64,000 nt of DNA from Psammoneis japonica. Its lineage: Eukaryota. The notes beneath the pieces are model-generated. The model did not search any database. It had not been told where the DNA came from and worked only from the letters and a program-made list of their open reading frames with translations. The translations under genes and the position numbers were made by a program. Where the stretch lies: positions 186,001-250,000 of the forward strand of contig QPGO01000104.1 of NCBI GenBank assembly GCA_008632985.1, in the 5' to 3' direction. This document shows positions 1-48,421 of the stretch, in pieces (within the stretch, counting starts at the first letter, position 1; each line of letters begins with the position of its first letter).

Positions 1-275
1 GTGTTATATGCCTTGGATTTGATTATGCTGGTAACAAACACATATGCTTTGACGTGAAGCACAAAAAAGGCGAGACCTGTCCAACTTTTCCGGCTGACAA
101 TAGCACGACAAACATTTGGGTACAGCACTGTAACCTACAACAACGTGGTGCGGCAATACCCGGTTGACAGACAATTTGACACTACTAGAATTATTAATCC
201 GCTACCAATACGCACAGATTTGACAAGATTCTGCGATGGCGTAAACACACGTTTTTGAGGCCATCGATCCTCTTC

Positions 276-646
276 TTAAGGATAGTAGTGTCCTTCCTCC
301 TCCTCTTCTTCTTCCTCCTCCTCTTCTTCTTCCTCCTCCTCTTCCTCCTCTTCTCCTCTTCTTCCTCCTCTTCCTCCTCTTCTTCCTCCTCTTCCTCCTC
401 TTCCTCCTCCGAGGATGATTTGCTTGACTTGCTAGACTTGCTAGACTTGCTTGACTTGCTTGACTTGCTTGACTTACTTGACTTGCTTCCCATTCCTTTG
501 CCATACAGCTCGCGAGCATTGTAGGTCGATGTTTTCTCCAACTTGCGGGCATGGATCTCGCGGCCGCGGACACGCGACTGAGCGGCAGCAACGTCCACCA
601 ACGCCATCGTGGCAACAGCAAGGAGGAACAACGGAAGAAGCTTCAT
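276..646 (-). CDS. Secreted silaffin-like protein (signal peptide, RXL sites, (KSS)n block, poly-Glu), with an apparent 1-nt frameshift in the poly-Glu tract
   Basis: MKLLPLFLLAVATMALVDVAAA signal peptide, then RKL and REL motifs, GSKSSKSSKSS... and a Glu run. Restoring one base near 351-355 gives ...EEEEGHYYP* (stop 276-278). 646-276+1=371, one short of a codon multiple. Confidence 0.8.
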
Positions 647-1214
647 GGTTGAGGGGGGAGAGAACACTGAAAATCACGCTGCAATCTGTTTTGTGAGAGT
701 TGTGAGTTGTGAGACGATGGCGGATAAAGTGGGCAAGTTTTTGTTTTTTCACAAAAAAAGTTGATAAATTTTGAAACATTTATATGACCTTCAGAACAGT
801 ATGATTCGCAAAAATTTAAAAATCAATGATGTTATTTCACGCTTCATACCGAATAATAAAAATTTAATTATCAAACCGCATGCCGTATCAAAATTTTAAA
901 GACAATGTTCGAATATGCACGTGAAGATATTCACATAATGACGCATACTCATTTATTATAAAATGTCAACGAATCACAATCTTAGATGCTGGATGTCGGA
1001 AGTCATGACTTACATAAAGGTGGTCAAATTTTTAAATATATTCAGAAACAAAAAAATGAGTCGTAGACATGACTCACACTGCGAAAGTAAAAATTTGTAA
1101 AGCGCTGCCAGTCGTGGGAAAGCAATTTCTTTCTCGCAACAAAACCGCTTCCATCGTGCCGCTTCTCACTTTTTCTTGTTTAAAAGAATCATCCCCCCAA
1201 CCCTGTTTCGAACC

Positions 1215-2282
1215 ATGCGTGTTTCTGCCTGTGTTTTCTTTGGTGTTGCTAGTCTGCTCGATTGGCAGAATGGAGCCTTGGCGATTGCTAATCCTTCGGG
1301 AGAAGAAACAGTCGAAAAGGTGGCGGACTCGGAGCAAAAGTTTGTATTGAAGCCGGATGCGAGCCTTTTAGACTATCTAGACCCCTCCCTGTTTGAAGAT
1401 CCATCGGTTTTGAAAGAAATCAAGGAAACTCTTCGTAGAGGAAGCCTCGTTGCTATCAAGGATGCGTTTATTCCAGAGTTTGCAGAATATGCGTGGTCCT
1501 CTTTTAGTCGAGATGATCTCGAATGGGAGCCGTTTGTGTCTATCAAGCCCAATGGCCACAACTTTCTAAAACACAGACCGGTCTCGAAAGATAAAGAGGA
1601 GGTGTTTAAACAAGTTTCAGATGTTTTCAAACACAAGGAATCGAGGAAGTTCATGTCTTCTCTTTCAGGCAGAAATTGCCATTCCAGCAACATTTCTACC
1701 TTGTTGAGCTGGTACAAGCCGGGAGATCACAGTAACCCACACAGTGATCGACTGGGAAAAAGAACGGTGACTTTTCTTTGGCAGCTCTCCAAAGATTGGG
1801 ATCCAGCTTGGGGTGGTGCCTTTTATTGGAACAATGCATTCTTCCAAAACGCTTACCAGCACGCCTCGTTTAACACGCTCCTCCTGTTCCCTGTAACGGC
1901 CACATCAACCCATGCTGTCACCCCAGTCTTGCCTGCTTCGGAAGGTTACAAACGACTGACCTTTTGTGGTTGGTACAATGCCAAAATAACTCGAGACGAA
2001 TGGGATACTGTGCATGATCCTTTGGAACTCATGTATGCCACCCCGGAGGATCGATCCGACTTGACATATGAGGAGGCAAAGCGAATTGTGGCGATGGATC
2101 TTTCCGAGGTCAAGGACGAGGCTCGCCGACAGAAACTTGATGCTCTCAAGGACGACATTCTGGATGAAGCTATTCATCCCTTATATGAAGATGCTATTTA
2201 TGTGTTGGGTTTTCCTGAGGAGAACCACGACCTTGAGAAAAAGGACGGGTTGTCGGAGGGACAACAAGAGAGGACCTCTTGA
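1215..2282 (+). CDS. Secreted 2OG-Fe(II) oxygenase (prolyl/lysyl-hydroxylase-like)
   Basis: Signal-like N-terminus MRVSACVFFGVASLL. Has the HSD ... WGG ... H(AVTPV) ... R(LTFCGW) HxD...H...R pattern. Confidence 0.85.
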   Translation: MRVSACVFFGVASLLDWQNGALAIANPSGEETVEKVADSEQKFVLKPDASLLDYLDPSLFEDPSVLKEIKETLRRGSLVAIKDAFIPEFAEYAWSSFSRDDLEWEPFVSIKPNGHNFLKHRPVSKDKEEVFKQVSDVFKHKESRKFMSSLSGRNCHSSNISTLLSWYKPGDHSNPHSDRLGKRTVTFLWQLSKDWDPAWGGAFYWNNAFFQNAYQHASFNTLLLFPVTATSTHAVTPVLPASEGYKRLTFCGWYNAKITRDEWDTVHDPLELMYATPEDRSDLTYEEAKRIVAMDLSEVKDEARRQKLDALKDDILDEAIHPLYEDAIYVLGFPEENHDLEKKDGLSEGQQERTS

Positions 2283-3849
2283 ACCGTTTCATTGAGTCTT
2301 TAGCTTTTCACGTACAATTGTAACTCTATAGCGTCAGACCTACATACTTTCTTTGTTCTTCTGGATGTCCTTCGAGGACGATAAAACTTAATGTGTCACT
2401 GTGAATGGGAATGAATCAGGGTGAATGGCAAAACTGCAATGCACAACTTGATCGGGACCAAAAGGTGGTAGATTTCTGTTGCATTGATGGCAACTTTGCC
2501 AGGCCGAGGCAATCAGCAACAAAAAGTTTGAGGTTAGGATGATGCAAAGGGCACCCTCAAGGTGTGAAGAGGAGACAAGTGGTCATGTGGGGACGCTGTT
2601 CCAGTGATCCCAGTCCAGCAAGCCTCTTTTGTGGAGAAGCAGAAGGACATGTGTTCACCCCCAAGGGAGACAGAACATCAATGCTGTTCCTCCTTCTAAG
2701 GCTCATTTGCAATCTGTGGCAGAGTTTGATGATGCCAAACCAATCTTTGAAGAGAGCTGATTTGTCAAATGTCAAAGGCAAGAGTGTCTTGGTTTTGGCA
2801 TTTTCAACCAGAGTCTTGACATGCTGTTGGTGTGTTTGAGAGTTGCCAAGCTTTGTGAGATCCCCATCCATTGCAGACTTGCCAGCCTCAAGCCAAGGAT
2901 CTTAAACTTTCTTCATCTCAGCCACTGCTTTGTGCCCAGCTTGTCTGGTTCATTGTGAGCCTTCAAATGGTGCACAGTGCACATTGGTTGACAGAGAACC
3001 GTCCCTGCCAGTGCACTTTTCAGCAGCAATCACAGCATGAATGAGGCTTTTCCTGGCACTTGCTGCCACCAACCTGCCCACTTGCTGCTTCAAAGCTTTG
3101 GCTGTTCAATCCATCATGATGTGTGTGGAAGCTTCAAAACACAGTGGAGGCGGCCATTGTTGTGGTGGTTGTGCTGCTCCCCAGTTGTGCCATGGCAGTG
3201 GCAATCAAGTCCTTGTGCACCACAGGCAGTGGCTCATGGCACATCTTCAACCACTTCCCCTTCATGGAGTGGGTGGATCAAATGGGCTCCTGCCATGGCA
3301 TGTCAATGATGGCAAAGTTTGGTCTGCAACAACTTGATGAAAAGATGGGAATCTTGTGGACCTGCATCAATGAGGTGACCTTGCTCTTGCCACTGTCTTT
3401 AAAGTCCAAGGGCTTGAGCTGCTCCAACCCCACAAGGCACTTGGCAAACATGCCTGCCCTTTGATGTCACCAGCAAAGTTGGCACCTGCAGATGAAATGG
3501 AGCCTTGTTGGCACCAAAGGTGTTTCGCACATTGGAAAACCCAAGTGCAAGACCTGGGGTGGAAAGCGGTGACACAGAGAATGCAACAGCAGCTGTGCCC
3601 ACAGCTGTCTGCACTCCAGTCTGCCCCTGAGGGCACAAAGTGGGCAGACACAACCCATCAAAGCCAGGGGGCTTGGCAATCCTTTGCTCCAATCTGACCA
3701 TTGCACTTTTCTCAACAGCAGCTCTCAAGTGGCTTTGAGACATTGTTCCCCACAATCCCAGATCCTTGTGACACATGCTGGGGATCAATGTTCCTCAACA
3801 ACAGCTCTTGGAAACCAAGCATGTGCACCAACTTAGAAGTTCTGCTGAG

Positions 3850-4960
3850 AGCACAGCCACCACACCAAAACATTGCCACTCTCCCGCTCATTGTTTCCTC
3901 AGCTTTCAACATCTTGCTGGCAATCAGGTCACAGCCTCTGCACCAATGCCGCCCACTCCTGTGCTGCTCACTCCTGCTTTTGCTTGTTGATTGGAAGTGA
4001 GTCCATGCCCCCACACTTGCCAGCCACACGTGCCTCTGTGACCATCTGAGCAGGCTTGGTGAGAGCATTTGCAACCATTGAGAGCATTTGCAACCATGTC
4101 AGCCATGTCATCAACAAAGGTGCCATCAGCGTGAAAGGCCAGAGACCTTCTCCAGTGTGTCGCACCACTTTCTTCAGCCAACTCTCTGTGTTCAATGTCA
4201 ATTTCTTCAAGCAAAGCAATGTGTTTGCTTGTGAAGCCAATTGGCACAACAACCAAGTTCTGGCGCTGCTCACCACAATCTCTGGAAGCACATCATTGGT
4301 TTGCAGACAAAGCCATTCAACAGGACCCACCCAACTTTGGCAGCTCAAATGAATTTTGATGCCGGCCTTGGGCCCAGGAAGCAATTTAGATGTTTTTCCA
4401 ACACAATCCTGTCTCTGTTCTTGACATGGGTCCCCCACATTGATGTAAAATTTTGGCACCCCATGAGCAGAAAACAGCACATGGCAGGCACATTTCTGCC
4501 CCTCTGCCGTGCCCTCTACAATTTCTTCAGGCATGAAGACTCAAGCTCTTTCTGAACAAGGTCTGCCATTGCCTTGGCACAACCTGGCCTGTCACACCAC
4601 AAGGGGACCACCGTGTGAACCAATTTGTTGGGCTCAAACCAATCTGTGTTCTTGGCAAAGATCTCCTGCAAAATTTGCCAAGCAGGAGAATGACAAAAGC
4701 ATTTGTGCCATCCTTTTGAATCTGCTCTGAAGCATCCTCAACAAATGAGTGCCAGCACCACATCACAACACATGCCTTGACATCTGGGGGTCATGTCGTT
4801 GCTTCAAAGAGTGACTCATGAGATTCACCTGTGTGTTGGAGCACTTCAGGATTGAAGGTCCCCCTCTGATTGATTTGCAAGCAGCCCTTGATTTGGGAAC
4901 TTGCCATTGTGACATTGTCCAAGCAATCAGTGGACTGCAATGGTGCCAGTGGTTGCAGCA
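3850..4960 (-). pseudogene. hemH: Ferrochelatase pseudogene (plastid type, with C-terminal CAB/LHC-motif remnant)
   Basis: Frameshifted fragments: PKSRAACKSIRGGPSILKCS, VVPLWCDRPGCAKAMADLV, VLFSAHGVPKFYINVGDPCQ, LSCQSWVGPVEWL, VVVPIGFTSKHIALLEEIDIEHRELAEESG, AEETMSGRVAM. Confidence 0.9.
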
Positions 4961-6299
4961 GTCAAACAAGAATGCCATGGTCTGAAAACATGTTGCACAG
5001 CTCACCTGTCAGAAGGTGGCAATTTTGGCATCTGTGCCTGTTGAGCTCAGCTTCTCACTTCTCTTTTGTCAAGTGTCAACCCCTGTGTGCATTTCTGCAC
5101 GTGCTCTCACACCAATTTTGCCCTTTTCAGATGGCATTTTGCTGTGTCCCCCAGCACCCTTTGGGCCACTTCTGTCATTGGTGTGCCCTTGTTTTGGCAT
5201 GATGTGCAATGATTTTCAGCAAAAATCCATGCCTTGTGGTTTGCGTGCTTGTTGTCTCGGCAATTTGTTGCAGATTCAGTGCATTTTCTGCACAGGATCC
5301 ATCGCAAGTTCCGCGCACTTCACAAATGCCCGCCCATGTTCACATTGTCTTTGATGCAATCATCTTCTGTCCACACCGTCATCCCACCACATTTCTTTTT
5401 CTCCTGTTGGCTTCTCAAGTCCTTCACCTCATGTGGTGCAAGTTCTGCCCCTCTTGCTGTGGTGTTTTCAAGTGCTTGTTTGGACAAACCATTGGCGCCA
5501 CTTGATGGCCATCCATTTGCTGCACAGATTGGCATTTCTGTGCAAGATTTGGCATCAATTCTGCGTGAGAATGATGTTTCTTCCAACGCCCTTCTCATCA
5601 CATCATCAAGGCTCCCTGTTTCACACATGCAAGTCCTGAACACCCCCTCTTTTCCCCACTGGCCTGCCAACCATGCTGCTCTGAGCAGCCAGTGGCTCAA
5701 TTTTGTTCCGGCGCATCAGGTGTGAAACTCAGTCAGTCTTTGTTGAAGACAAGACTCATCCTTGGAAGCAAGTTTTTTTCAGAGTTTGCACTGACTTTGT
5801 GTCCTCATGTTGACATGGCTGTCCTTTGTTGTGTTGGTTTGGGTGCTTTGCATCCTCTCCAAAAGAAAGCAACGACCTCAATTCTGTGCAATTGCATCTC
5901 AACCAGTTGTCTCCATTGGGTGCCTCCATCCAGAAGCACCGTGCAAACTTAAAATTGGGTTTGAGTTTTTCTTTGAAGCAAATGGCAAATGACCTGTCCA
6001 CTGCCTGACCAACAAACCAGCCAACAACTGGCCAACACAAAAAAAGTGTCCTGAAGAATCGCCAGCCACTGAGTGGTTCAATGAAATCTTGCACCCCGCA
6101 CCAGTGGTGGGAGGTCCAAGTGTTTTTTTCAGAGGAGGAAAAAGCCCCTGTGCTTTGGCCATCTTGGTTTTCAAAGAAAGCCAGAGCATCAAGTCCAAAA
6201 AGAAAGAAAAGCAAAAGACCATGCCCAAATGGTGCAAAAACATGGAAAATGAAAATTTCAACTGATGTGCCTTTGCAAATTCTTCCATGAGCAGGTGTG

Positions 6300-8250
6300 A
6301 AATGCACCAGTTCTGCTGGAATCGATTTCCGAGTGGAAGCAACTCAATCAGAGCAGCACCTCAAGATGGAACCCTGTTTTTTTGTCTGCAAGACAAGAGG
6401 ATTTGTTCTGATGCAATCCATTTCAAAAGCCTCAGGACCAAGGACTCCACAAGTGCACAGCATCATCAAAATGTCTGCACCAAGTCATGGTTGGATAGAA
6501 TTTCAGGTCACGAGTCAATCAGGTCCAAGAAACACATCTGCTGTGCAAGGAGAGACCATTGGAGAGTTTTTAGAGACCAAATCGACAAGCCTTGAGTCCA
6601 AAGAGCAAGAAGGAACCATTGAAAACTACCCCAAGAGTCTCTCAACTCATGCCTTCCGAGAAATTACACTTCAGAATCAGAGTTGTTGTTTTTGAGACGA
6701 TCTGAAGAAACCAAAGGCTCTCAGCAGCAAGAAAGTGCCTGTTGGACCCAAGAGGTCAATGAAGAGTGTCTGTGCGACCCTTCAATCGACTCTAAGTTGA
6801 ATCTGGTGGGAAACCAAGCGCTGAGCCATCAGCCATCACTCGCACCGCAAGGATGGCAGCATCAGTCTGCTGTCCAAAATGACGAACTGCTGGAACACAC
6901 CCTTGACAAGCTGATTGAATTTTGAGCAGTCCAGAGGTTGTTGAAGACGTCCATGACAAAAAAATGTCAAATCAGACTCTGACAGCAAGGTTGGCTCCAA
7001 AACCAAAATGGCTCCAAGTTTGGTTCCGAAAATGGTCTCCTTTGTGGCACCTGAGCTGTCCAAAGTGAATGAAAAGTGCCACCTTTGAAAAAAGAACACC
7101 TGCATCATGGATTGAAGCCACTCTAAAAACAAAGTGGCAAAAGAGTGCAAGGGCAGCTCTGAAAGAGACCCAAAAATACAAAGCTCTGATGGCAATCGCA
7201 CACGGTCGTGTGACGACAGCAGAAACACCTCTGTGAAAGAGGAGTTGAATGCCACAAGGACTGAGCAGTTCACAACAACATTTAAAATGAGTTCCTTGGC
7301 ATGGGAACAAAAAAACAAGAGCAAAATTGTGACTCCAAAACACTTGGTGAACAAAACCATCAATTTGGAAAAATTGATCTGATCGATTCCGATCAAAAAA
7401 TTTGTGCCGCTGGAGGAGCACAACTCAATGCAGGACGTCTGGCAACCCAGAAAAAACACCACAGCATGTTGCACCAGTCCTGTCCTCTTTGTCTGTGTGA
7501 GTGCTTCTCTGAGAAAAGCAAAAAACAAGCTTCAACGCCGTTCTTCTCAACAAAGAACATTGTCAACCACAACTTTGCACAAAATCATGCGGAAGTTGAG
7601 AATGAAGAAATCCTCCACCAAAACTTGGGAAACAAAGGGTGGACTCTTCACGACTGACAGTCGCTGTCCAACACAGTTCTCTTTGTCTGAACTTGACAAG
7701 CATGTGATGACATCAATGACAAAGTGTGTTTGCAACACATCATTCTCTTCAAGTTCACATGATGTGATCAATTGACATGACTTGATGCTCAGTCTTGCAA
7801 TCAAACTGGGCTGTGCAAATGAAGAAATCAAATTGGAAGAAGCAGCTGCCCTGCAAAGAATGTTGTGCACTCTTTGATGCTGATGTTTTCCAGCTGAAAA
7901 CTGGTCACATTGAAAAATGTGATGACGTGAGTGGAGTCAATGACGGAACGAATGGTCCTCGACTCACATTGTCACACTGTTCATCACAATGATGTGACAG
8001 CTGCGGCAACTCATCTGACTCCAGAGGAGCAGGATCAATTGAGCTTCCTTTTAAAAAAAGATTTGAGTCTCTTTTTGATGGTTCTCTGGGCAAGTGGACC
8101 GGAAAACCTTGCAGTGAAATCTGGTGCAAAACTGCATCACACAAAAGGTTTCCTGTTTCCACAAGCCTTGGAGGCAACTTGCAAGGAGGTCGAAAGGCTC
8201 TGCAAGCCAAAAATCCTGAAGAAAAACAAACCACTCTGAGCTCTTCCCCA
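6300..8250 (+). mobile_element. Degenerate Ty3/gypsy gag-pol remnant (protease to start of RT)
   Basis: HDVI..HDLM (cf. protease YDxIIGRDL) near 7760-7790. HLTPEEQDQLSFLLKK..LFDGSLGKW..KEVERLCK..ILKK at 8010-8230 matches the pre-RT region of diatom gypsy pol. Left boundary approximate. Confidence 0.65.
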
Positions 8251-8351
8251 GTTTCTGTGCATGACTCAAGCACACCCATTGTCCGAAGGGGGGCACAACT
8301 CCACACCCAGATGCAACACTGAGTCCCAGCGACATCTGCTGACCAGCAGAG

Positions 8352-8748
8352 GACGCGCTCCAGCTCTGGGTGGGACCTTGCACCACTGCACTGTGACATC
8401 AACAGTTTTTTGGATCGCGTCGCATGTCACCCACGCACATTTCTACGTGTTGTGTTCTCCGAAATTGTTTCATGCTCCCTGTTTTGCGAAGCCAAAGGCT
8501 TTCCATTTTCAACATTTGTGAGAATGAAAATGTGCTGGGTGTTTTCTTTGATGTCTGAAGAACACACCCGGGCAAACTGTTGATGATGCACTGCAAGCAT
8601 GGAGGAGGAGATGCTTTCGTAAAATTGCCTCTTTTTCTGTTGGCGATCATTCACATTTTCATTGCAGCAAAAATTCACTGCAGAGCTTGCACGCAGAATT
8701 CTGCAGGCCCAATGTCACACGGAGTCCCGCCTGGGACTGGAACCCATC
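8352..8748 (+). mobile_element. MITE family A, copy 1 (~397 bp)
   Basis: TIRs GACGCGCTCCAGCTCTGGGTGGGA / TCCCGCCTGGGACTGGAACCCATC with 4-bp TSD AGAG. Near-identical to 48769-49162 and 57477-57874. Confidence 0.9.
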
Positions 8749-8829
8749 AGAGCCACAGAAAAAGCAAAATGATGCTGCGCATCTGAGAGGAAATGAAGCA
8801 CAGAAGCTTTGGAAAACAACAACAAACAA

Positions 8830-10685
8830 GTCCCGCATTTCCATGTTTTTGTGTTTTCCCGCATTTCCATGTTTTCGTGTTTTTCTGCATTTCCATGTTT
8901 TTGTGTTTTCCCGCATTTCCGTGTTTTGGTGTTCCGTGTTTTTGTGTTTTTCCATGTTTCCTTGTTTTCATGTTTTTCCGCATTTTCGTGTTTTCGTGTT
9001 TTCCTGCATTTCCATGTTTTCATGTTTTCCTGCATTTTCGTGTTTTTGCATTTTCCCGCATTTCCGTGTTTTCCCGCATTTCCGTGTTTTCCCACATTTT
9101 CGTGTTTTCATGTTTTCCCAAATTTCCGTGTTTTTGTGTTTTCCTGCATTTCCATGTTTTCGTGTTTTCATTGCATTTCCGTGTTTTCGTGTTTTCCTGC
9201 ATTTCGGTGTTTTTGTGTTTTCCCACATTTCTGCATTTTTGTGTTTTGTCGTGTTTCCATGTTTTGGTGTTTTCCCGCATTTCCATGTTTTTGTGTTTTT
9301 CCGCATGTCTGCATTTTCTTGTTTTCCAGTGTTTCCGTGTTTTTCCGCATTTCCATCTTTTCATGTTTTCCCGCATTTCCGTGTTTTCATGTTTTCCAAC
9401 ATTTCCGTGTTTTTGTGTTTTCCTGCATTTCCATGTTTCCGCTTTTCCTGCATTTCCTTGTTTTCGTGTTTTCCCACATCCCGCATTTCCGTGTTTTCAT
9501 GTTTTCCAACATTTCCGTGTTTTTGTGTTTTCCTGCATTTCCATGTTTTTGTGTTTTCCTTGCATTTCCGTGTTTTCGTGTTTTTGGGCACGCTGAATTA
9601 AAGTCACGCATTGGGCACATGCCCTCACTCCACTTTTGCCCCCGAATGGCCAGATCTGTAAAACGGATGTTTCTGTAAAACGCGCACGCAATTGGCGTGC
9701 ACGAACAGTCAAAATGTGCATCCGGCGGCAAGACAAGGGAATCGAACACGGCCCGGCGCAAGACGGACAGGTCTCACGCAGAATCCTGCGCAGACATGAG
9801 GTGATGAGCCAACCCATGTGTTTTGCACGACAAAGCACGTGTTTTACAGATCAACACGGTTTTACACCATTGCCCTCCCTCCCCCACTTTTCTCTGGAGG
9901 GTGCGCCCAATGCGCGACTTCAACTCAGTGCACCCTTTGTGTTTTCCCTCATTTCCGTGTTTTTGTGTTTTCCCGCATTTCCATGTTTTCCCACATTTCC
10001 TTGTTTTTGTGTTTTCCAGGGTTTCTGTGTTTTCATGTTTTCCCGCATTTCCGTGTTTTCGTGTTTTCCCACATTTCCTTGTTTTTGTGTTTTCCAGGGT
10101 TTCTGTGTTTTCATGTTTTCCCGCATTTCCGTGTCTTCGTGTTTTCCCGCATTTTCGTGTTTTCGCACATTTCCATGTTTTCGTGTTTTCCCATGTTTTT
10201 GTGTTTTCCTGTGTTTCCGTGTTTTCATTTTCCCGCATTTCCCTTTTTCATGTTTTCCCACATTCCTGTGTTTTCGTGTTTTCTCATGTTTCCAGGTTTT
10301 TGTGTTTTCTCGCATTTCCAGGTTTTTCTGTTTTCCCTCATTTCCGGGTTTTCATGTTTTCCCGCATTTCCTGGTTTTCGTGTTTTCTCTCTGCCATTCA
10401 TTGCAACGCCAGAGCACAATTTCGCGCCTTTCACAATTTCCTGTGTTTCCGTGTTTTTGTGTTTTCCCACATTTTCGTGTTTTTGTGTTTTCCTGCATTT
10501 CCGTGTTTTCGTGTTTTCCCACATTTCCGTGTTTTGTGTTTTCCCACATTTCTGTTTTTTTGTGTTTTCCCACATTTCCGTTTTTTTGTGTTTTCCTTGC
10601 ATTTCCGTGTTTCAGTGTTTTGGTGTTTTCCCGCATTTCTCCAGGTTTTTGTGTCTTCCCGCATTTCCGGGTTTTCTTGTTTTCC
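8830..10685. repeat. Satellite/minisatellite of 8-9-bp subunits (~26-bp higher-order unit TTTTCCCGCATTTCCGTGTTTTTGTG), interrupted by a MITE
   Basis: Directly visible tandem arrays at 8830-9585 and 9936-10685. Confidence 0.95.
9586..9935. mobile_element. MITE with ~35-bp TIRs (GGG...CCC), PIF/Harbinger-like
   Basis: Left end GGGCACGCTGAATTAAAGTCACGCATTGGGC; right end reverse complement GGGTGCACTGAGTTGAAGTCGCGCATTGGGC. Flanked by TTT/TTT inside the satellite. Confidence 0.8.
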
Positions 10686-12021
10686 TTTGATTTTGTGTGG
10701 TCCAGCAAAGGCTGCAGCCCTGAGCAAAAACAATGTGGCAGAGAAATCAACAAGCTTTCAATGAATGAGTTCCGGCACACAATGATTGACAAGGGCCACC
10801 ACAGCAAAGGATTCACTGCCATTTGCATGGCCCAAACAGCACCCACTCCATCAGCAACTCTTGGTGTTTCCAAAAACAAGCACGACATTGCAGTGGACCT
10901 GTTGCACAAGCTTGTCTCTGCTTCAAGTGACAAGGGATCCTTTCTGTGCCATTTCAGGGATGAAATGAACAAAACCTTTGCATCGCTCAAGCACGCACCC
11001 TGCCTCCTGCAACATGACTTTCTGGCAAGACTTGGTGCAGCACCAAGGAATGTTTGGCACCTGCATTTTGATTGCTGCTTTTTGGTTGGAACAAAGCAAC
11101 AACAATCACAAGAAACAAGAGCACCCCCATCCAGTGGCTGCAGTGCAGCTCAACAACTTGCCCTCATTCAGTCTCGCCACATGAACAATTCTGGTGTTGT
11201 TTCATTTTTCATGTGCCCTTCCTCAATGCATCCATGGTTTGTTCATTTCCTTTTTAATCCACCTGGCATGTTGGTCTGCTGTTGATTCCATTGGCTCTTG
11301 TTTCAACGAGTTGTCACCAAAAACATCAATTTAAACAGCTGCCTGTTGTGGTGCCTGCGGGAGCCACAAATCCATGTTTTTGATGTCTTTCTCATCATTT
11401 TCTCCTGCTTGCAACTGCTTGCTGTTGTTTTCTTGGGTCTTTTCTTGGGTCTCTTCTGTCCCGTCCATGTGGTCCCAGAACTCCCTCGAACAAACTTCGT
11501 TGCACTCATCTGCGTCCTTGCTCAATCTCTGCTTGTGTGAATCTTTTTTCCCAATTCTTTCTGCCACGGGTGCATTTTTTGGCAAAGAGCTTTTGGGCAG
11601 GAAAGACACTGTTAGCCCAGCAATGTACCTCCAGTGAGCTAGCCGAGATGTCCCGCTCTCGTTCTTCTGTTCAACAAAGCCGACACGTCCATTCGTTGAA
11701 AATTTCACAATGCCCTTGCCACATCATGGCCTCAGTCATTAAGAAAGGAAAAGTCTTAGCAGCAAACGACACATTCCAAACAGCTATGACGATGCTTCTG
11801 ATTCCTCGGTCCTAAATTGCCGCCTTTGTTTCGTGTGGCTTCGTACGACGGGGCGCCCTCATCGCATTTAACTAGTGAAGCAGAAAGAGTTGCTTTTCTC
11901 TAAAATTCTTCTCCTATGAATTAAAAAGTTAACTCTTGGAAACTTCCTTTGCTACGGACACAAACAAAAGGAATAATATTTTTGCATATCACTTCACAAA
12001 AGCATTCAACCACCAATGTCT

Positions 12022-19599: not shown

Positions 19600-22500
19600 A
19601 GATAGACAAACAGAAAATGCCAAACTGCTCTGTCAGCTGTCCGTCAACTTGCGCGGGATTTCATGTTGCCCCAGCGCAGCCCTAGCACAGTCATCTCACA
19701 ATCAGACATTTTCACCAATCAACTGCAACTGGCAGGGCTTGTGCCATGGTCCGTGAAAAGTTCTGTTGTGGCTGGGAGAGCAGAAGAGAGTGCATCAAAA
19801 ACAGGGCAAAAAACCAGCCGAGCATCGCGCACAGGAGGTGCTGGCACGCAGCACAAGTGCGCCCACTCCTTGCTGATGCAGCAAAGCCACACACTGGCCT
19901 CTGGCACTGGACAGCACAGTGCTCCTGCTCACACACACCTGTGTGGCACATCACATTTTGGCACAATGCAGACATGACCAGATGCCGTCATGCAAAATCT
20001 CAAGCCAGTGTGTGAGCAGTCCACTGGTGTTGCCAGAGGGACAGCTCACAGACACTCGCTGTCAAATGACAGCACTTGGCACAACATCTTGTGCAGCACT
20101 CAGAGCAAGGTAAAAGAGTTGTTCATGCAGCAACTCTGGAGAGAGAGCATGGTGACAAAAGACAAAGCTGCAGCCCGATGAGGTCATGATCACTCTTTTG
20201 AAGTTGACCATGGGTCCAGAGAGGCAACAAAATGACACACCACAGTCAAATGGTGTTCCCTGCAAAACAAAGCTGTGTCTGTTGGAAATTTGGCTGCTCT
20301 TGCTTGCTGTTTTGCTCTTGGGCTCACACAAAGTGCAGCAAAAAAAGCAGGCGGCACTGCGCTGGCTTTGCAGCAAACCGCTGCTTTCTCTTGCACTCTT
20401 CACAACAACTTGAATCCTTGCCCACATCTCTCTGGGATGAGCCACCCTCTTTTGAATGTGCGCGCTCATGACCTGGGTGCTGCAGAAGCCCAGCAACTGG
20501 CACCCAGCTCTGTCACACTTCCAGCTGCTCCCAAGGCATTTTTTGGGTTTTTTGAGCAACAAAGCTCTTTCCACTTTGTGGATGTCAACACAAGGTTTGT
20601 GCAGCTCCTGAGACGGGGCTCTGGCATCTGTGAGTGTGCTTGTCTTGATCTGCACAGCAAGTTTGACTTTTGTGCATTGTCAAGTTGGTTGAAATGTTGT
20701 CTCTCCTTTTCTCTCCAAGTCTGACCTTTGCCTCTTGTTTGGGTTTGGAGCTGGGTGGCAGACTTCCCCCCGCAAATCATGTCAGGGAAGCAGCGACATG
20801 TCAAGGAAGCAGTGACATGTCCCAGTGACAGGCGACATGCCAAACAACAATTTCATTGATTCATGGGCCAACCTCAGTCAAGTGCAATTGTCTTAAACTT
20901 TGCCACCAAGTGCAGCCAAATGTCTTGTTCATGCTCCAAGAAACATTTTCTCAATGAGAAGCAAGCTCCCAAAAAGTGATGCCCACATGTTCCAGTGCCA
21001 GGTGACATGCCAAACAAAATTTTCATTGATTCATGGGCCAACCCCACCCAATCAAGTGCAATTGCCTCAAACTTTGCCATCAAATGCAGCCAAATGTCTT
21101 GTTCATGCTCCAAGAAACATTTTCTCAATGAGAGGCAAACTCCCAAAAAGTGATGCCAACACAATGATGAACATGACCACACACACAGTGGTGGCTGCTT
21201 TCCACCTTGTGGCAACAAAAACAATGCCGTCAGCAGCACCATCACATTTTGCTTGGTCTGCAGGTGCCATTGTTCTTTTCATCAGTGAAATGACTTTGGA
21301 CTTGCAGAGCTTTCAGCATCTTGAAAGTGATGGAGTTTTTGCACCCTCCTCTTGGGCCATTTTGACCCCATGCTCTGAAAGTGTTCAATGTGAAAATGAT
21401 GACATTGAGTCCACTTCACATCCAAGTCAGCTCATGCAGTCATTTCGGTGTCACAAAGATTCATTTCAGTGACCTTGTGCACTGACTTTTGGGTGATGCA
21501 TCAAGACCTGCAAAATCCTTTGAACACAACAGCTCCATTTTTGCATGAAATGATCCACAATTCAACATTTCCTTCACAACACATGTTGCATTGGCTTCAT
21601 GCCTTTAACCAGCACTGCTTCCACAGTTGTGAAGTCAAAGAAAAATTTCAAGAACAACCACACACTGCCATGGCAACTTCTTGTGCGAAAAACACATGTG
21701 TCTGGACTGGGCACGGCTTCACTTGTTTTCCATGCTGTGAACAATGGTGTGCAGCCAGGCTCTCAGATGTGCCACAGCCAGCTTGCAAGCACAGAGATTT
21801 GAGCCTCAGCTGAGATCTGCAGTTTTGTCACACAGAAGCTGCCCAGCTGCAGCCATGTTGTCAGATGACAACTCTGCTTGTCTCTGTGCCATGCCTGCTC
21901 CATCCCCAACATGGCATGCAAGATCAACTCAAAAGCAAGTTTTCTTTCCACTGTCATGATGGCAAAGCCTGGTGAATTTGCAGCTGGCTGCTTGCAGGTG
22001 TCATTTGCTTCTTCTGCCACAACTTTGGCAGCAGACATTTGCTGAACAAGGCACCACATGGTCACCTGGTTTCCTGCCAATGCACACACCCCTTGATGGT
22101 GTGTTCAGCAGCACTTCATGGAGTGGTGCAAGCAAACACAAGAGCAGCAGATGCAAGCTCAGCAGGCAGCAGCAAGCTGAGGTCAAGCCACAGGTGCTGA
22201 TGCTTGCCAGAGCACCTCTGAACAACTGCACCATTGTCGTCATGACCACCCAACTTGGCAACAACAACTCCATCTCTCTTGCCGCACTGCACCCTGGGCT
22301 TTCCTTTTCTTGGTCTTTTTCATGCAAAGAGATGAGCTTCACTTGCTTTCATTGTTGCTGCCCATTTTTGCAGCATTTCTGTCTTTTTTGCTCTGTTGAC
22401 AACTGCCCTTCTTGCCCTGAAACGAGCCGACAACAACGTGCATGCCACATTGCTGCTGAGTGTGTGTCAGATCTGCACAGAGCAGAGCACTGGCACTGGG

Positions 22501-22860
22501 TGCCTCCTCCCACAGTGACATGTGCTGCTGCATTTGCAAGGAATCCTGGTTGGGGCATGCCAGAGGCTTGGGGCATTGTGTCAAGTTGGCTGTTGTTGCA
22601 CTGGGCTCCATTCTCAGACAGTGTCATGCCTCTTGGAGAGCACTGTCCTTGACATGGCTGTTTTGCTGCTGGCACACAGAGTGACCCTCCTTGGTGACTC
22701 CAGTCCATTGTGCATCAACAACACCTGCAGGGGTGAGTGCGCTGGTCCCTGGCTTCCCAATGAGCCCCCTCGGGTTGCACAGCTCCACATTGTTTGCTTG
22801 CTGCGGCAAACTCGAAGGCACAATTTTTTTGCATGTTGTGTGCGTTTTTTTCTCGGAAAA
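19600..22860. other. TpA/CpG-depleted degenerate repeat block 2 (unclassified debris left of the YR element)
   Basis: TA almost absent, TG/CA excess and no credible ORF. Confidence 0.75.
20834..21158. repeat. Tandem duplication of ~170 bp
   Basis: GACATGCCAAACAA...CCCAAAAAGTGATGCC occurs at ~20834 and ~21004. Confidence 0.85.
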
Positions 22861-23428
22861 TGCAGCTGTCGCCACTTTTCTTGTTTGTCCTCAGCAGAGT
22901 GATTCAAGCTAGGAGACAAGACACAACAGGACCAAATCCAACAGGCAGGAGTGGAGATGGCTTTGCTGGCACTGTGGGAAGCCCTGCTCCCAAACCCAAG
23001 CTGGACGGTGGGCCAGAGGGCAGGAGAGATGGGAGCAATTGACTGTCTAGAGCCCGGCTTGCTGTTGTTGTTCTCAAAAGAATGAAAACAATGAAAGCCA
23101 GAGAAGAGTCATTGTAACTCCCGTGCAACGTGCGGCACTTTCAATGGGAAGGAATTGGGAATCCCTCTTTGTGGATCTCACGAGGACAGCGGCTGTTGCC
23201 ACTTTTCTTGTTTGTCCTTGGCAGAGTGATTCAAGCCAGGAGACAAGACACAATGGGACCAAATCCAATGGGTGGGAGTGGAGATGGCTTTGCTGGCACT
23301 GCAGGAAGCCCTGCTCCCAAACCTGAGCTGGACAGCAGGCTGCCAGCACCACCCACAACAGCACAGCAATGCAGTGAAGGGCCTGTGACTTGGGCGGGAG
23401 GGTGGGCCACGTCTGGCGGGTGTGGCGC

Positions 23429-24600
23429 TCATGGAGGGTTGACGGGGACATCGGCGTTCGGAAGGAGAACGAAGTTGCCACCTTGGAGCATCCGTTGAGA
23501 GAAATGGCGCACAATCGGTTCCGCCTGAAGGTGGAGGTGCCAAAGCATTTCGTCAGAGTGCCAGCAACCCAAGAGACATGATGCAATGTCCGTGTCCACT
23601 CGGGCACACAGCAACCCCATGGTGCCTGCAGCTCGAAGACTGCGGGCGGAGACATTGCCAGGTGTGAAACCGAGGTTCTGAGGGCCGAGGGCCAGGACAG
23701 TGGTGCGGAGGATGGCAGTGATGTCGGCAGGAGTGACAAGGTGCCAGGCACCATTGTGAAAACAAACAGACAACGGAGTGTCAGGGTGCACTCCATGGGA
23801 GTGGAGATGCAGAGCTCGGCGTGCTGCAGCCTTGACAGGGCAAAGTTGAGGATGCCCAGAGAGGCCTTGACCTGTGACTTCACCCACCATTTTTCTGGGT
23901 GGTGAAATCAAGCGTGGCAAAGGTGGCGGCATTGAGACAGGCAGCAGGGCACGTGAATAAATCCAAGTGTGCTTGACCAGTGCTCAGCCGCAAGTCGGCC
24001 AGATGGAACGGGGTGGAGTCTGACAGTGTTGCAGTGCATTCGCCGGGTCACATCAAACAAAAGAATGCAAGTGCGATCATGTCGGCAATGGCCATGGTGC
24101 CGGGGTGGTGACCAGTGGCCACCAATGCAAGGATCCAATGTAGGACAGTGATCAGGATCAGTTTTACTTGGTCTGGCAGAGGATCCTCTTTCTTGCAGTG
24201 ACGGATTTGTCGGGTGAGACGGAAATCCATTTGGCCTTGGGGTGTTTTGCGTGAGTCTGGGGCCCCCATTGCAGAAAACGTTTGTCCAACCGACCGCACG
24301 GCATCTTCAGCAGTGCATGCTTGGATGGGATGGCCACGTGGGGTGATTTGGCCAGTTCGATGTCAGTGCATGAAGACTTGGAGGAAGAGAACTGGGTCAT
24401 CAATGGCTTGGAGCAATGGGTCGATGGCCATTTCGGCACAAAATTCAGTCCATTTTGTCCAATGGGTGTCACAGGCGGTGGCGCGCGAAGGGGCAATGGA
24501 GTTGGCGACTGCGAATTGTGCAGCGCCGAGATCACGTGGGAATGCAGCTCTCGTGGCGGCGTCCACAAGCACCAAGATTTGGTCTGTGGACAAAAAGCGT
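23429..24600 (-). pseudogene. Tyrosine recombinase of the Ngaro element (frameshifted, catalytic Tyr lost)
   Basis: VSARSLRAAGTMGLLCARVDTD...LLGCWHSDEMLWHLHLQA (cf. HSLR/RSLR...GRWxSDxxxxY). Confidence 0.85.
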
Positions 24601-24666
24601 TAAAATGTTGCAAAAAGGCAGCAGTGGTTGGTGATCAGAGGCGGGAGGCATCGTCAGCGGCAGTGT

Positions 24667-26520
24667 TCAAAGGCCCCGGCAGGTGATCATGCAATGCAAT
24701 GTGGCAGTGATGACGTTGGTGACAGGCGGCACAGCGCAGGAGCTTGGCTTGGGGCTTGGCAGTGGTGGACGAGCCCTCACGTTTCCAGCACATTGTGCCA
24801 AACTGTCAGTGCGCTGCAGGTTGGTGCGTTCACGCAGATCAAAACAATCTGTGGTGGCATGGGTGTGGAGCATGCTGCCTGCTAATTCGAGGTCAGTGTT
24901 GGTGATGGAACCATTGGGGTTGTCGAAGGTTGCCAAATCCCTGGTGACATCGTGGGGAAAGGGCATGCGCCACACCACGGGGCCTGAATCCTGCTGGTGC
25001 CGGGGCCGACCTTGGGGTGAATGCTTTGCCCGGGCCGCCCGGGGGACAGCAGCAGGAGTTGGGATGATGACACCGCCAGCACCATGGCCAGCGGCGTTGT
25101 GGCAGCCGTGCACGGCAAAGTCCAACTGTGCAAGCTCTTGGATGCGCACTGGGTGATCTTCGATGGTTGTGGTGAGATCGCGAAAATCATCCAAGACACT
25201 GTGCACAGTGGGAGTCAAACGGACACGGGAGTCAGGTGGGGTGTGACGGAGAGTGTCTTGTGGCTAAGAGAAAAGGCCTCGGGAGCCGGGTGTGGCAAGC
25301 AAGAGCGAACGGAGTTCTCCAAGCAACTCATGACAGTCGGTGGTGGTGGCATGTTGACGGGTTCGAGGGAAGTCCTGGGCAAGAGTGTCGTGCAGCAGGC
25401 GATTTAAACGTCGGGTGGTGAGACGCAGTGTCACAGCTTTGGTGTCGATGAGCCATCCGAGGACCTCTTTTTGTGTGGACCAGGAGGCATCACCTTTGCA
25501 AAGCTTTTTGACAGAGATCGGTTCGGTGCGATGTGGTGAGTCGTCTGGGGCCAAGGGATGAAAGATGTTGTCAATTGCCACCATCAGTGTGCAATGCACG
25601 TTCAAACGGGCAGCGCGTGAGCCCTGCGCGGCCCCGATGCAGTCATCAACATGTGTCTCCACACAAGCAAGGCGACGAGGACGTCAATGTCCAAGGTGTG
25701 GGTCCGGGTCATTGGGCATTGGGACGGCGATGGTGTCGGGTGGCGGCGGCAGTGTTGGTGGCAACGGCGGGCAATGACTCATGGCAACATGCTCCAAACG
25801 ATGAGGTGGTGCCTGGCAGTTGCACAGGAGGAGTTGGTTGGCAATGTCAGCACCCGTTTCGGTGGAGGTGCTAAAAGCAGGTGGCAAATTTTTCCATCCC
25901 ATTGGCAACTTGGCAGGGATGGCGATGAGTGGTGGCTCACCTGGCAGACTGGGGAAGGCAACAGCTGGGACCTGTGCACGGTCCGGTGCCAACGTCATGT
26001 GGCAGAATCTGTTGGACATGTCGATTTTCATCAGATGGACGTGTCCTTTGTTGGGGTTGGCGAGGAGGAAGCATCGCAGGAGCCGGTCAAGAGCTCTCCT
26101 GAACTGCATGGATTCCACTGGCGTGTTGGGCTGCGCAGCATCGTTGGTTCCGTAGAAAGTGCAGTCTGCGATGGGCCGGGGACATCGTCCATGCTGGGGG
26201 ACTGCTCCAATGGGACTGATGTGGAGTCCTGGGGTGTTCTTCACGTCCTTGCAGGGGACTACAACCCAAAAGCCCTTGTCGACACAGTCGGCCATGTCCT
26301 CACACAAAAACTCAACACACTCGCAGGCGGACTTGTGCGGCCCCCTTTGGATGCTGGCGTCTGGTTTGGCGGCACTCCACGGTGGGTCGGCAACGGTGAC
26401 TGGAATGCCTCGGCGTTTACAACCCTGGAGCATGCAACGGGCAGGATGGTCGTGTGCCCCATGCATGGGGCCCAAGTCACCTCGACCACGATGGTGTTGC
26501 AACAAGCAGCTGAGGCCTCT
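24667..26520 (-). pseudogene. Reverse transcriptase / RNase H of the Ngaro element
   Basis: ISPIGAVPQHGRCPRPIADCT, HLMKIDMSNRFCH, LPMGWKNLPPAF, THVDDCIG (YVDD), KEVLGWLIDT and ITNTDLELAG. Confidence 0.88.
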
Positions 26521-29500
26521 GCGACGCCAATGTGACATGCTCACCCAATTCATCAGTGTCAACTGATTCGGCAATCGCTTGCCCACGTTCCGTGGTGCGG
26601 CATTGCCGCTTCCCAAATCTCTCCGTCTGCGGGGTGATGGATGCTGCTCACTGGCAGTGAAAGAAGGCTCTCGGTCCCGAGTCCCCGAGCTGGGGCCGTT
26701 GCCAATGACCCATTTGGTTGTCCCCAATGCTCCGTGGCCCAAGTGAAAAGTGCATCCTGCTCCGCTTGACTGTGGCCGCCACGATGATCGGCACGGGCAT
26801 TGCAGCTGGAGTTGCGCTGTCCCTTTGGGTGGAACGGGAGGCACCGAGGATTCCCACTGGCGTCCATCGGCAGGGCAATGTTGGCCGCAGCACACCTGTC
26901 CTTGACTGCACGGGAGCGGACCCCCGGCCTGGCGCGAATCTCATCGAATCACGTGTCGCAGTGCTCATTGCGAATCAACATGTTGGCACCTGGGCGTGCC
27001 GGTGGTGGGGGCGCGGCAGGTTGCTGTGGTGCAGCAAACGGTTGGGGTGTCGCCGGTGGAGCTTGGTGTGGCAAGACGGCTGTGGGCAAGTCACACCTCC
27101 AATGCATGGCCCCTTTGGCGGCCAAGCGAACAATGGGTTGTCCTTCAAAGGGCAAAGGTTGGTCAGCACGTGCCTGGTCAGTGAACCACTGCCCGATCTC
27201 TGTCTGGGCCCAACATTGGAGGTCTGCCAGCAAAGTGGGATAGCGCACCATTTGTCATGCCAGCTCGTTGGCACAAACATCCATCGCGCGGCGTTGTTGT
27301 CCCAGCCACGTCGTGACCGCATGCTGGGTTCCTAGACTGGTGGCGAGGATGACACGGTGACCGTCACAGGAGTGTTGGGCTCCTTGCATTGCAGTGGTGA
27401 CCCTGGCTTTGTCTGGTGCCTCCAGGATCTGAGTGTCTGCTGCACTGGGCACATTGTCTCCACAATGGATCTGGCGACAGAGCGCATTGCGGCACGCAAT
27501 TTGCCATTCTTGCTCGGGCATCGTGAGACTGAAGATGAAGGGATCAATCCCTTGGGTGAGGTCATCTTGATTGTGTCTGGCAAAATTCTGTTGGAGCAAC
27601 TTGGACACCAAATTTGCCAATGCGGGCACGTTGAAATGCACCCCAAGGGCCTCACGTTGTTCGTTGACACTGCCTTGGACTGAGGCCACCCGTCCGGGCT
27701 TGGGCGCAGATGCCAAGTCGGCCCACATCTGCGGCAATTGTGTCTCTTGGTAGATCTGACACAAGCACATGATGACGAGGGTGGCTTGCACACCAAAAGC
27801 CTCCCATGGGGTTTTGCCACGTGCACTGGCTTGTGAGCGTGCCTGCAGCGACCAACCTCTGTTGACGCTGCTCTGCCGTGAGGTTGTCAATGGCAGCAAT
27901 CACGGGCTGAAAATGCTGCAATGTCTGCCCTTGTTGCCCCACATGATTGGGCAAATCCCGATTGACCTTTCTCTCAAAATGCCGAATGAGGGATTCATTC
28001 GGCGGCCAGGGCAGAGTGGGCCAGTCCCTGATCACAGCCAAGGCCACATGATCCTGCTGAGCAGCTGCACATGCCACCTTCAGAAAATCCAACAAGGGGC
28101 GGCACTCGTTGACTTGATTTGCCGCGGTCGCCGCACCATGGATTCGTGTGAAGGCCTGTTTGGGTGTCAGCGCAGTCGAGAGCAGTGGATTGACACAACT
28201 GAAAGGCACGAACATGCAATTGCGTGTCCGCACCTCTGCTGCATTGGTGGTCTGATCGGCAACATGGGGGTGAAACCCAAGTGGGTGTGCCGTGATGGCG
28301 GCCAACATCGCGGCGGCGTCTAACACGTGTGTGCCATTGGGTGCAAGATTCGTCATCTCCACCGGGAACTCGGCCAGTTGATGCTGGTTGACCGCTGGAT
28401 CACCTGCAATGCCGCAGGTGCACCCGTCCCAGGGTTGCGCTTGTCCCACTGCCGTCGTGGGGCACGTGGATGGCCTGTGCGAGATTTGGACACATCCGGG
28501 TTTGTTGGCTTGGCCTGGCAAACGACAGTGCATGGCAATGGCCATTGGCATGTCGTGCTCTGATGCGGCGGCAATCCTGGTGAACAAAGCTTGCGGGTTG
28601 CACCTTGACAGTCCATTGATGCCGGCTGCGAAGTCCACCATGGCTTCTTGGTGCTGTCCCTGGTGCAGGTCATGGTTGGCTGCTCCGCAGCAGTCGGCGC
28701 ACATCCGCACTGCCTGCGGTTGCAGCAGCACTGGCACCACATTGGGTCCCTGTGTGGCCGGCACCTGCTCAGGAGCTTGTGGAGGTGCTGGTTGTTGTTG
28801 CCCAATGGGCAGTTGCTGTGCCAGTTGATTCATGGGGTTTGCTGTCCTTGCGGCTTCGGCTGTGGCTGCTGTGGCCCTGGAGCAGGCTGCCCTGGCTGTT
28901 GGCCTGCTGGTGGCACCGGATGCATGGGCGGTGGGGTGGCACGTTCTGATGAGCATTTGTGTTTCCTGGGTCCGGTGGCGCGCCGGTGTTCAACATGATG
29001 TTTCGAATTGGTTGCACTCCTGCTTGTGCGAAGCAAAATTGAAAAGAAGGCAACAACAGCGGCGGAGGTCTCCTGCGTCGAACTCAACAGCGATCAACCA
29101 TCTAGAGCCCGGCTTGCTGTTGTTGTTCTCGAAAGAATGAAAACAACGAAAGCCGGAGAAGAGACATTCTAACTCCCGTGCAATGCACGGCACTTTCAAC
29201 AGGAAGGAATTGGGAATCCCTCTTTGCGGATCTCACGAGGACAGCGACCTAAAAAGTAAACCAGGCCTGCGGGGGAGCATTGACCACTTGTCTTTCTTTG
29301 TGGGTGTGGGTGTGTGCCGTTGCATGCTGCATTGCCTGTACGTACGTAGGGCCCTACCGCCGGGGCCGGTGTCGGCATTGTGGCGGCTGAGTGGCGTGGC
29401 CACCGCACCGGTGACGCGGATGACCGTTATATTTGATGTCTCATGCCATTTTTGGGGCTGTAGCGAGGTGCACGGACACTCTTTTTTTTCCAATTTATCG

Positions 29501-48376: not shown

Positions 48377-48421
48377 TTAATGTCACACAATGCTTGTTTA
48401 ATGGGTCATTGTGTTTTATTT

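Follow-up and report, generated by a model that had tools for sequence, protein, structure and literature searches.

A ferrochelatase pseudogene in Psammoneis japonica, probably eroded by a block-confined, two-strand loss of TpA and CpG

In the present study, a stretch of 64,000 nucleotides (nt) from the diatom Psammoneis japonica (contig QPGO01000104.1, positions 186,001 to 250,000; hereafter, the window) was found to carry a dead copy of the diatom's gene for plastid-type ferrochelatase, duplicated at the DNA level. This duplicated host gene has probably been eroded by insertions and deletions together with a process, confined to the sequence block in which the copy lies, that turns TpA and CpG into TpG or CpA on both strands. 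The pseudogene and the lesions within it are listed below in window positions; the parent-like contigs mentioned are better-preserved copies from the sequencing runs described later.

3828..5006, minus strand: ferrochelatase pseudogene, identified by PF00762 and homologue alignments, colinear with residues 124-518 of a 536-amino-acid diatom-type ferrochelatase
4060..4097, no strand: perfect 19-nt tandem duplication inside the pseudogene, which shifts the frame; the loose end of a parent-like contig joins across it
4257..4258, no strand: loss of 1 nt relative to the other ferrochelatase contigs, at the frame switch between the open reading frames (ORFs) 3971-4540 and 3927-4292
4537..4538, no strand: loss of 1 nt relative to the other ferrochelatase contigs, at a frame switch
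4673..4681, no strand: deletion site, with 7 letters in the window against 44 in the parent-like contigs, and a gap in the protein alignments

First, the identity of the copy as ferrochelatase, proposed in an earlier note on this DNA, is borne out by protein comparisons. The PF00762 (Ferrochelatase) family was matched by two of the four ORF pieces tested, which scored 40.2 and 43.0 bits (cut-off 27; E 2.7e-10 and 3.9e-11), and no Pfam match was obtained with the other two; in addition, all 16 sequences matched in PDB by the longest piece were ferrochelatases. The earlier note had placed the copy at 3850..4960, which is the right locus, but the copy is longer. In a frameshift-aware alignment to the best database match (P0001, 56% identity over the piece searched), window positions 5006 to 3840 correspond to residues 124-518 of 536, and identity was found at 198 of 376 aligned codons; with P0136 as the reference, the aligned region extends to 3828 and takes in the family's hydrophobic stretch at the C-terminus (helix region). 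The copy is uninterrupted and nearly full-length for the coding region, and its frame is not intact, containing one in-frame stop and 6-10 frameshifts depending on the reference; the deletion at 4673..4681 is a net loss of 37 nt, which removed about 13 codons (the YPQFSISTSGSSL region). The database relatives are plastid-type ferrochelatases of algae with red-type plastids, the named matches being Vitrella and brown algae, and the C-terminal piece is closest to P0135 (73%) and P0136 (69%). Protein searches with the pseudogene pieces recovered these related diatom proteins (P0001, P0135 and P0136) and not the parent itself. The closest DNA match among 80 metagenome loci around related ferrochelatase genes was locus L049 (67% over 491 nt). 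Apart from its substitution spectrum, the pseudogene is of the ordinary duplicated, non-processed type, with which it shares a colinear arrangement, frameshifts, a stop, small insertions and deletions, and a better-preserved copy elsewhere; it differs in a transition-to-transversion ratio of about 5 to 1 and in the near-total loss of two dinucleotides.

Second, these losses are evident in the dinucleotide counts and in the codons of the copy. Only 4 TA were counted in 3828-5006 where 76 are expected from base composition, and CG was likewise reduced (10 against 70), whereas TG and CA were in excess (122 against 63 and 149 against 84, respectively); the combination of a CG deficit with a TG/CA excess is that of methylated-CpG decay. 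The alignment of eight homologues provided 150 columns, each at least 80% conserved, of which 97 are unchanged and 53 are changed in the pseudogene. When the ancestral codon is picked to favor the signature, 25 of the 53 changed codons can be explained by TA or CG turning into TG or CA alone, and 5 require another transition. Tyrosine is an unambiguous test of TA loss because every tyrosine codon contains TA. Conserved tyrosines were retained in 1 of 12 columns compared with 96 of 138 for the other conserved residues (Fisher p = 4.4e-5), the lost ones having become Cys (8), His (1), Trp (1) and Gln (1), and a single tyrosine remains among the 383 codons of the aligned reading. All of the conserved H, Q, W, K, M and C residues were retained (17 of 17). 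The altered motifs reported in the earlier note are all present in the minus-strand translation, namely GDPCQ (the former Tyr codon being TGT at 4426), SCQSWVG (TGC at 4342 and TGG at 4333), WCDRPGC (4596 and 4581), IEHREL (CAC at 4190) and AACKSIRGGPSILKC (4879), and its claim that a housekeeping-gene copy bears the change of TA to TG or CA holds for CG as well.

Third, the same depletion extends far beyond the pseudogene. The window is a mosaic of TA/CG-depleted blocks and gene islands, with seven blocks that amount to 30,917 bp of the 64 kb. The blocks include the following.

2540..11600, no strand: block holding the pseudogene, 9 kb, starting about 260 nt past the end (2279) of an oxygenase ORF and ending about 400 nt before the ORF at 12025
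19750..29000, no strand: second large block, same signature
32400-34600, no strand: block, same signature
38400-41150, no strand: block, same signature
47900-54050, no strand: block, same signature
56150-58350, no strand: block, same signature

In the blocks, the observed-to-expected ratio (o/e) was 0.05 for TA, 0.39 for CG and 1.73 for TG/CA, compared with 0.59, 0.96 and 1.16 in the islands (28,906 bp), and the frequency lost by TA and CG together (0.067) is close to that gained by TG and CA (0.072). The left edge of the block holding the pseudogene is sharp (about 2400-2540), with TA dense up to 2389 and only three TA in the next 1000 nt, and the stretch 3048-3878, of approximately single-copy depth, is depleted as much as the repeats. 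A general bias of non-coding DNA was ruled out by the TA-rich spacers between island genes, e.g. 15840-16218, where 379 nt contain 40 TA. Annotation is affected by the blocks as well: their stop-type triplets on both strands comprise 88 TAA, 46 TAG and 1310 TGA, and because TAA and TAG are almost absent (134 together), long spurious ORFs fill the blocks. Moreover, a 1-kb signature test (TA o/e below 0.2, CG below 0.6, TG and CA above 1.4) was positive in 74 of 253 segments here and in none of 2255 segments from the 80 metagenome loci (633 kb), and TA o/e never fell below 0.42 in the twelve most diatom-like of these loci (124 kb), a control that is weak because the loci are centered on genes. 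Within the second large block, positions 24001-28000 have a GC content of 57-58% and a CG o/e of 0.66-0.70, above that of the other blocks, with TA still at 0.07-0.08. In this stretch, A:T to G:C pressure may have reached a later stage, and the ORFs of 418 and 445 amino acids in it, which belong to no family, are probably spurious, TAA and TAG being nearly absent.

Fourth, other ferrochelatase copies in the same sample allow the changes to be read at the DNA level. The DNA run X1, which contained 0.89 of the sampled words of window positions 2500-7500, was compared with window positions 1-8300 at 80% likeness. The window's own contigs in X1 differ from it at 0 of 864 nt and 1 of 1405 nt, at a depth of about 60, and two further ferrochelatase-like contigs of 8491 nt and 1167 nt are present, so that the sample holds at least three ferrochelatase-like copies. 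The 8491-nt parent-like contig aligns to 4091-4673 (93 differences, 4 gaps) and to 4681-4932 (48 differences) at about 83% identity, and run X2, from the same sample, yielded essentially the same sequence in a contig of 1578 nt (96 and 48 differences, with the same joint at 4673-4681). For the 1167-nt contig, which aligns to 4101-4556, 75 differences and 13 gaps were counted. Coverage by X2 and by a further run, X3, is missing over most of the compared stretch, and no evidence was drawn from this. The 8491-nt contig restores the frame at three break points of the window, by one additional letter at 4257, one at 4537, and 44 letters instead of 7 at 4673-4681. One motif illustrates the relation of the three copies, being SGITNW in the parent-like contig and the homologues, SGATHW in the window and SGVTNW in the 1167-nt contig. 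At position 4265, the window has G, which makes a CG, and all three X1 contigs covering the place, the window's own included, have A; this mismatch is a strain or assembly difference.

Sites of TA and CG were tallied by hand among 40 of 885 differences (two 30-nt loose ends and 4122-4164). Among these listed differences, the parent-like contig has six TA and five CG sites, which account for 12 of the 24 differences, and all 11 are altered in the window. Nine of the 11 carry signature changes (TA to CA 2, TA to TG 2, TA to CG 1, CG to TG 2, CG to CA 2) and two carry a transversion. The 1167-nt contig agrees with the parent-like letter at 7 of 13 sites among those listed, and at 4130-4131 a parent-like TA is CG in the window and CA in the 1167-nt contig, which indicates that sequential hits occur. 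The earlier note had raised the possibility of an unmutated parent, and the parent-like contig, with TA or CG kept at all 11 sites and the frame restored at three breaks, may fit that description. In the comparison with X2, the changes (window letter to contig letter) were A>G 38, C>T 32, G>A 36, T>C 33 and 28 transversions of all kinds, that is, 139 transitions to 28 transversions (about 5 to 1), over 167 distinct places in which the 1578-nt contig contributes about 144 of the roughly 189 differences across the X2 contigs. The four kinds of transition are about equally frequent, so both strands were hit. This spectrum matches TA>TG, TA>CA, CG>TG and CG>CA on double-stranded DNA and mismatches the editing of single-stranded RNA or complementary DNA (cDNA).

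Contig depth was about 60 for the block and for both of the other ferrochelatase contigs, compared with about 113-145 for the neighboring gene, and the depth of the pseudogene corresponds to 1-3 copies. Window positions 1-2500 showed 22 differences among those listed for X1, each in a single contig and at a depth of 110-146, and positions 3257-5505, covered by contigs with a depth of about 60, showed 0-1 differing letters. The block may be carried by a single haplotype, or else the two haplotypes differ too much there to be collapsed. If the 1167-nt contig is an allele, allelic divergence would be 16%, compared with about 1% in the neighboring gene, and the process would be very fast.

Thus, TA and CG are the ancestral and TG and CA the derived states, and the process acts on both strands, is dinucleotide-specific, is confined to sharp-edged blocks, and operates alongside ordinary decay. 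It looks chronic rather than the outcome of a single burst, because background differences accumulate, copies of a young insertion resembling a mobile element in the blocks are only partly converted, and two decayed ferrochelatase copies diverged independently. From the loss of about 95% of TA compared with about 7-8% of other divergence, the per-base rate at TpA is estimated to be about 20 times the background, which is the order known for methylated CpG in mammals. The pseudogene is the best calibrator of the process in the window, since conserved codons and a better-preserved copy both reveal its ancestral state, making direction, context, strand symmetry and relative rate measurable. GC-biased gene conversion was rejected as the cause: the GC content is 50% in the blocks and 48% in the islands, only TpA is hit among the A/T sites, and CpG goes the opposite way.

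Herein, we propose a scheme in which the blocks would be silenced chromatin. The CpG loss would then be ordinary 5-methylcytosine (5mC) deamination, and the TpA loss would arise as a mutagenic side effect of another activity, also restricted to the blocks, that acts on the T:A pair of TpA. Erosion in the 9-kb repeat-rich block combines insertions and deletions with mutation of the self-complementary TpA and CpG steps on both strands; sequential hits at one site sometimes turn TA into CG, and some CpG created in this way is later removed again. The creation of CpG by the process itself would account for the weaker depletion of CG than of TA, weakest of all in the GC-richer block at 24-28 kb. 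Genes would be spared because the activity does not pass the block edges and because hits in essential copies are purged by selection. Since TpA is its own complement, sequence alone cannot show which of its bases is hit. An oxidized thymine can pair with G, and known eukaryotic N6-methyladenine (6mA) sits at ApT, for which reason 6mA was rejected as the mark of TpA. Thymine oxidation by a dioxygenase of the TET/JBP type is slightly preferred, as a tentative choice, on account of the dinoflagellate precedent, and adenine deamination in DNA with a 5'-T preference is a close alternative that we regard as possible. In dinoflagellates, according to the available text of one report, T is replaced, with a preference for TA and TC, by 5-hydroxymethyluracil (5hmU), which lies on repeats, overlaps 5mC and is formed through a TET/JBP-type thymine dioxygenase (PMC11572971). 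Both cases concern a marine alga with a second mark, or its putative trace, at TA on repeats with 5mC (PMC11572971, in the same available text). The differences are that the dinoflagellates are alveolates and the diatom a stramenopile, that mutational loss of TA is not reported in that text (PMC11572971), and that the process here is known from sequence alone. Methylation of transposable elements (TEs) in diatoms is described in the available text of another report (PMC9998398).

Among known systems, the nearest are repeat-induced point mutation (RIP), following the same logic in the opposite direction and with a different chemistry, and CpG decay, which covers half of the pattern. The decay of methylated repeats shares with the present blocks the CG depletion, the TG/CA excess and the alternation of TG and CA at the same column; however, it accounts for the CG half only, whereas TA here is even lower (o/e 0.05) than CG (0.39), and we know of no CpG process that removes TA. 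RIP, known from Neurospora and other fungi, shares the dinucleotide-specific transitions on both strands that riddle repeats and gene duplicates in sharply bounded tracts, and likewise leaves missense and nonsense changes and a skewed dinucleotide content. In RIP, CpA becomes TpA (C:G to T:A) and TpA is enriched. Here, in contrast, TpA is removed (A:T to G:C), as the block o/e values for TA and TG/CA show, so the chemistry cannot be cytosine deamination alone; moreover, the host is a diatom and the process seems to be gradual. Where repeats are known to be hypermutated, the chemistry is C to T (RIP, CpG decay, APOBEC); to remove TpA through A:T-to-G:C change, another enzyme or base modification is required, and none has been described for genome defense in the literature searched. 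In the full-text literature that was searched, with subscription journals outside its coverage, no report of TpA-to-TpG/CpA hypermutation was found for diatoms or elsewhere.

Whether duplicates as such or the chromatin block around them would be targeted leans toward the block, because the following pair of duplicates in an island lacks the signature.

12025-13797 (591 amino acids) and 14448-15839 (464 amino acids), minus strand: tandem paralogous ORFs with about 71% nucleotide identity over 880 nt and no Pfam family

Between these paralogues (12796-13682 against 14874-15754), there are 110 transitions and 149 transversions, and each has 33-35 TA and 55 CG, which is normal. This bears on a RIP-like system, in which duplicates would be recognized by homology, e.g. 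before meiosis, and mutated in a burst by a TpA/CpG-specific enzyme, the ferrochelatase copy being hit as a duplicate whatever its location. The sample does contain at least three ferrochelatase-like sequences, the copy in the window adjoins high-copy repeats, and the transitions resemble those of RIP in being dinucleotide-specific and present on both strands; diatoms possess DNMT4 enzymes akin to the RID of fungi, according to the available text of PMC9998398. However, the direction is reversed, with TpA destroyed and not made, and the nearly single-copy stretch 3048-3878 is depleted like the repeats. The parent-like copy retains TA and CG at all of the listed sites and the island paralogues are untouched, although selection could explain both, and the ordinary substitutions and partly converted elements point to slow accumulation. 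We therefore regard homology-triggered mutation as unlikely, and prefer the block-confined process.

The earlier note had also suggested that the mutator strikes duplicated or TE-captured housekeeping genes and not only TEs. The first part stands, in that a duplicated copy with the signature exists alongside other copies, and the second is not supported. Capture by a transposon (Pack-type, Helitron-like or a retro-element), in which the gene fragment would share the fate of its carrier, draws on the adjacent high-copy repeat and on the second decayed copy elsewhere. Nevertheless, no terminal inverted or direct repeats flank the copy (2300-6500 holds only short, chance-level repeats), no run of seven or more A or T occurs in 2400-5600, and no TE protein domain was found in the 332 block ORFs of a Pfam scan of 341 ORFs (106 + 85 + 150, including 9 island ORFs). 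In addition, the pseudogene covers nearly the whole coding region and not a fragment, and its depth of 1-3 copies is unlike that of the neighboring repeat. Capture is accordingly judged improbable.

A retrocopy of an mRNA hyper-edited from A to I by an ADAR-like enzyme before reverse transcription would be uninterrupted, as the copy is, and would favor Tyr to Cys (A>G on the coding strand) over Tyr to His. ADAR converts A to I with a 5'-U preference and APOBEC3 converts C to U on cDNA, both acting on RNA or a single cDNA strand and hence strand-asymmetrically. The editing of retroelements by these enzymes resembles the present case in A-to-G change after a 5' T and in hypermutated mobile DNA, but the changes here are symmetric and block-wide, including in DNA that does not appear to be transcribed. 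The near-equal transition counts and the joint excess of TG and CA indicate that both strands were hit, the same pattern occurs in the non-coding flanks and the entire 9-kb block, and no poly(A) was found, there being no A or T run of seven or more in 2400-5600. Furthermore, over 4081-4932 the 8491-nt genomic contig follows the pseudogene colinearly and is just as uninterrupted, so there was no intron to lose there and intron loss is uninformative. An edited retrocopy is thus hardly credible. A sequencing artefact, in which the chemistry systematically miscalls heavily modified block DNA, is very improbable as well: some long-read base-callers can miscall modified bases as A>G and C>T, but the k-mer contigs of X1 match the window as given above, real insertions and deletions, the 19-nt duplication and the 37-nt deletion accompany the substitutions, and two-strand miscalls would leave many TA and CG calls and not 5% of the expected TA.

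Several points weigh against the explanation preferred here. A transversion is required in 23 of the 53 changed conserved codons, and 12 of the 24 listed differences lie outside the TA/CG sites of the parent-like contig. These two results indicate that the parent-like contig is not the exact ancestor or that other processes act too, and they qualify the expectation in the earlier note that the parent would give an exact ancestral sequence. The 11-site tally is a small, non-random sample, drawn from 40 of 885 differences. On the coding strand, Tyr became Cys eight times and His once, a strand imbalance at odds with the symmetric DNA counts. X1 may be the sample behind the window's assembly, and would then not provide independent support for the sequence. 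The scope is one window, methylation, chromatin state, the modified base and the enzyme rest on inference, and the grounds for calling the blocks repetitive are contig depth and one family of miniature inverted-repeat TEs (MITEs), not transposon genes.

With regard to wider significance, we can only speculate that diatoms, or this one, have a DNA mutator targeted to chromatin blocks that would be the mirror image of fungal RIP, turning TpA into TpG or CpA in double-stranded genomic DNA through a natural DNA adenine deaminase or thymine dioxygenase that works on the T:A pair and, together with CpG methylation, permanently destroying repeats and stray gene copies. If true, it would be the first natural A:T-to-G:C editor in genome defense, and an enzyme behind the process would be of interest for algal epigenetics and base editing.

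The repeats of the blocks were the following.

5264..8300, no strand: high-copy repeat adjoining the pseudogene, most bins of which have a summed contig depth of 1300-6755 (low-copy DNA: about 60-120), with no recognizable protein domain
8351..8748, plus strand: MITE-like element of 400 nt with terminal inverted repeats, of which the window has four copies
48769-49162, 57476-57875 and 49837-50234 (reversed): the other MITE-like copies, all within TA-poor blocks

The MITE-like copies have inverted termini of about 35-40 nt and a mutual likeness of 70-87%, and those at 48769 and 49837 are oriented toward each other across about 700 nt. Their aligned dinucleotide columns show alternation of TG and CA in 17, CG surviving in some copies in 16, and TA in 7; the copies keep most CG and some TA. 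The longest ORF of the highest-copy stretch (231 amino acids) gave one weak match in a phmmer search of 1.84 billion proteins (E 1.6e-5, 8 stretches).

The block holding the pseudogene also contains arrays of a 26-nt satellite at 8831-9584 (about 29 copies) and 9936-10621 (about 26 copies), with matches of 69-71% and units that differ chiefly by alternation of CG, TG and CA. The satellite stretch is strand-asymmetric, with a CA o/e of 1.9, a TG o/e of 1.3 and an AT skew of -0.3. Two sub-threshold matches, to Glyco_transf_20 and CBFD_NFYB_HMF, were the only ones in the Pfam scan of the 341 ORFs. The former lies at 48409-48720 on the minus strand, with MITE copies just upstream, and resembles the C-terminal end of this family, which is of the trehalose-phosphate synthase type; the score was 19 bits where the cut-off is 32.5 (E 6e-4). 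No match was found for this piece in PDB; it may be a second decayed host-gene fragment. The latter, a histone-fold match (E 2e-3), belongs to an ORF at the right edge of the block, at 11334-11723 on the minus strand.

The islands contain the following further genes.

1101-2279, plus strand: 2OG-Fe(II) oxygenase gene of the PF13640 type, prolyl-hydroxylase-like and not of the TET/JBP family, ending about 260 nt before the block edge
16219-19212: intact DPP-IV-type peptidase
58999-61557: intact Hsp110-type ORF, with diatom proteins as best matches (59-68% identity)

Nothing ties the oxygenase gene at 1101-2279 to the mutational process. The matches of the Hsp110-type ORF indicate that the window is nuclear DNA of a diatom, one that has no closely related sequenced species in the database searched. 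Further intact genes of the window encode an FG-GAP protein, a WW protein, a short-chain dehydrogenase and an MFS transporter. The named matches of the Hsp110-type ORF are Seminavis, Odontella, Attheya, Coscinodiscus, Cylindrotheca, Skeletonema and Thalassiosira, together with one eukprot row labelled Alexandrium.

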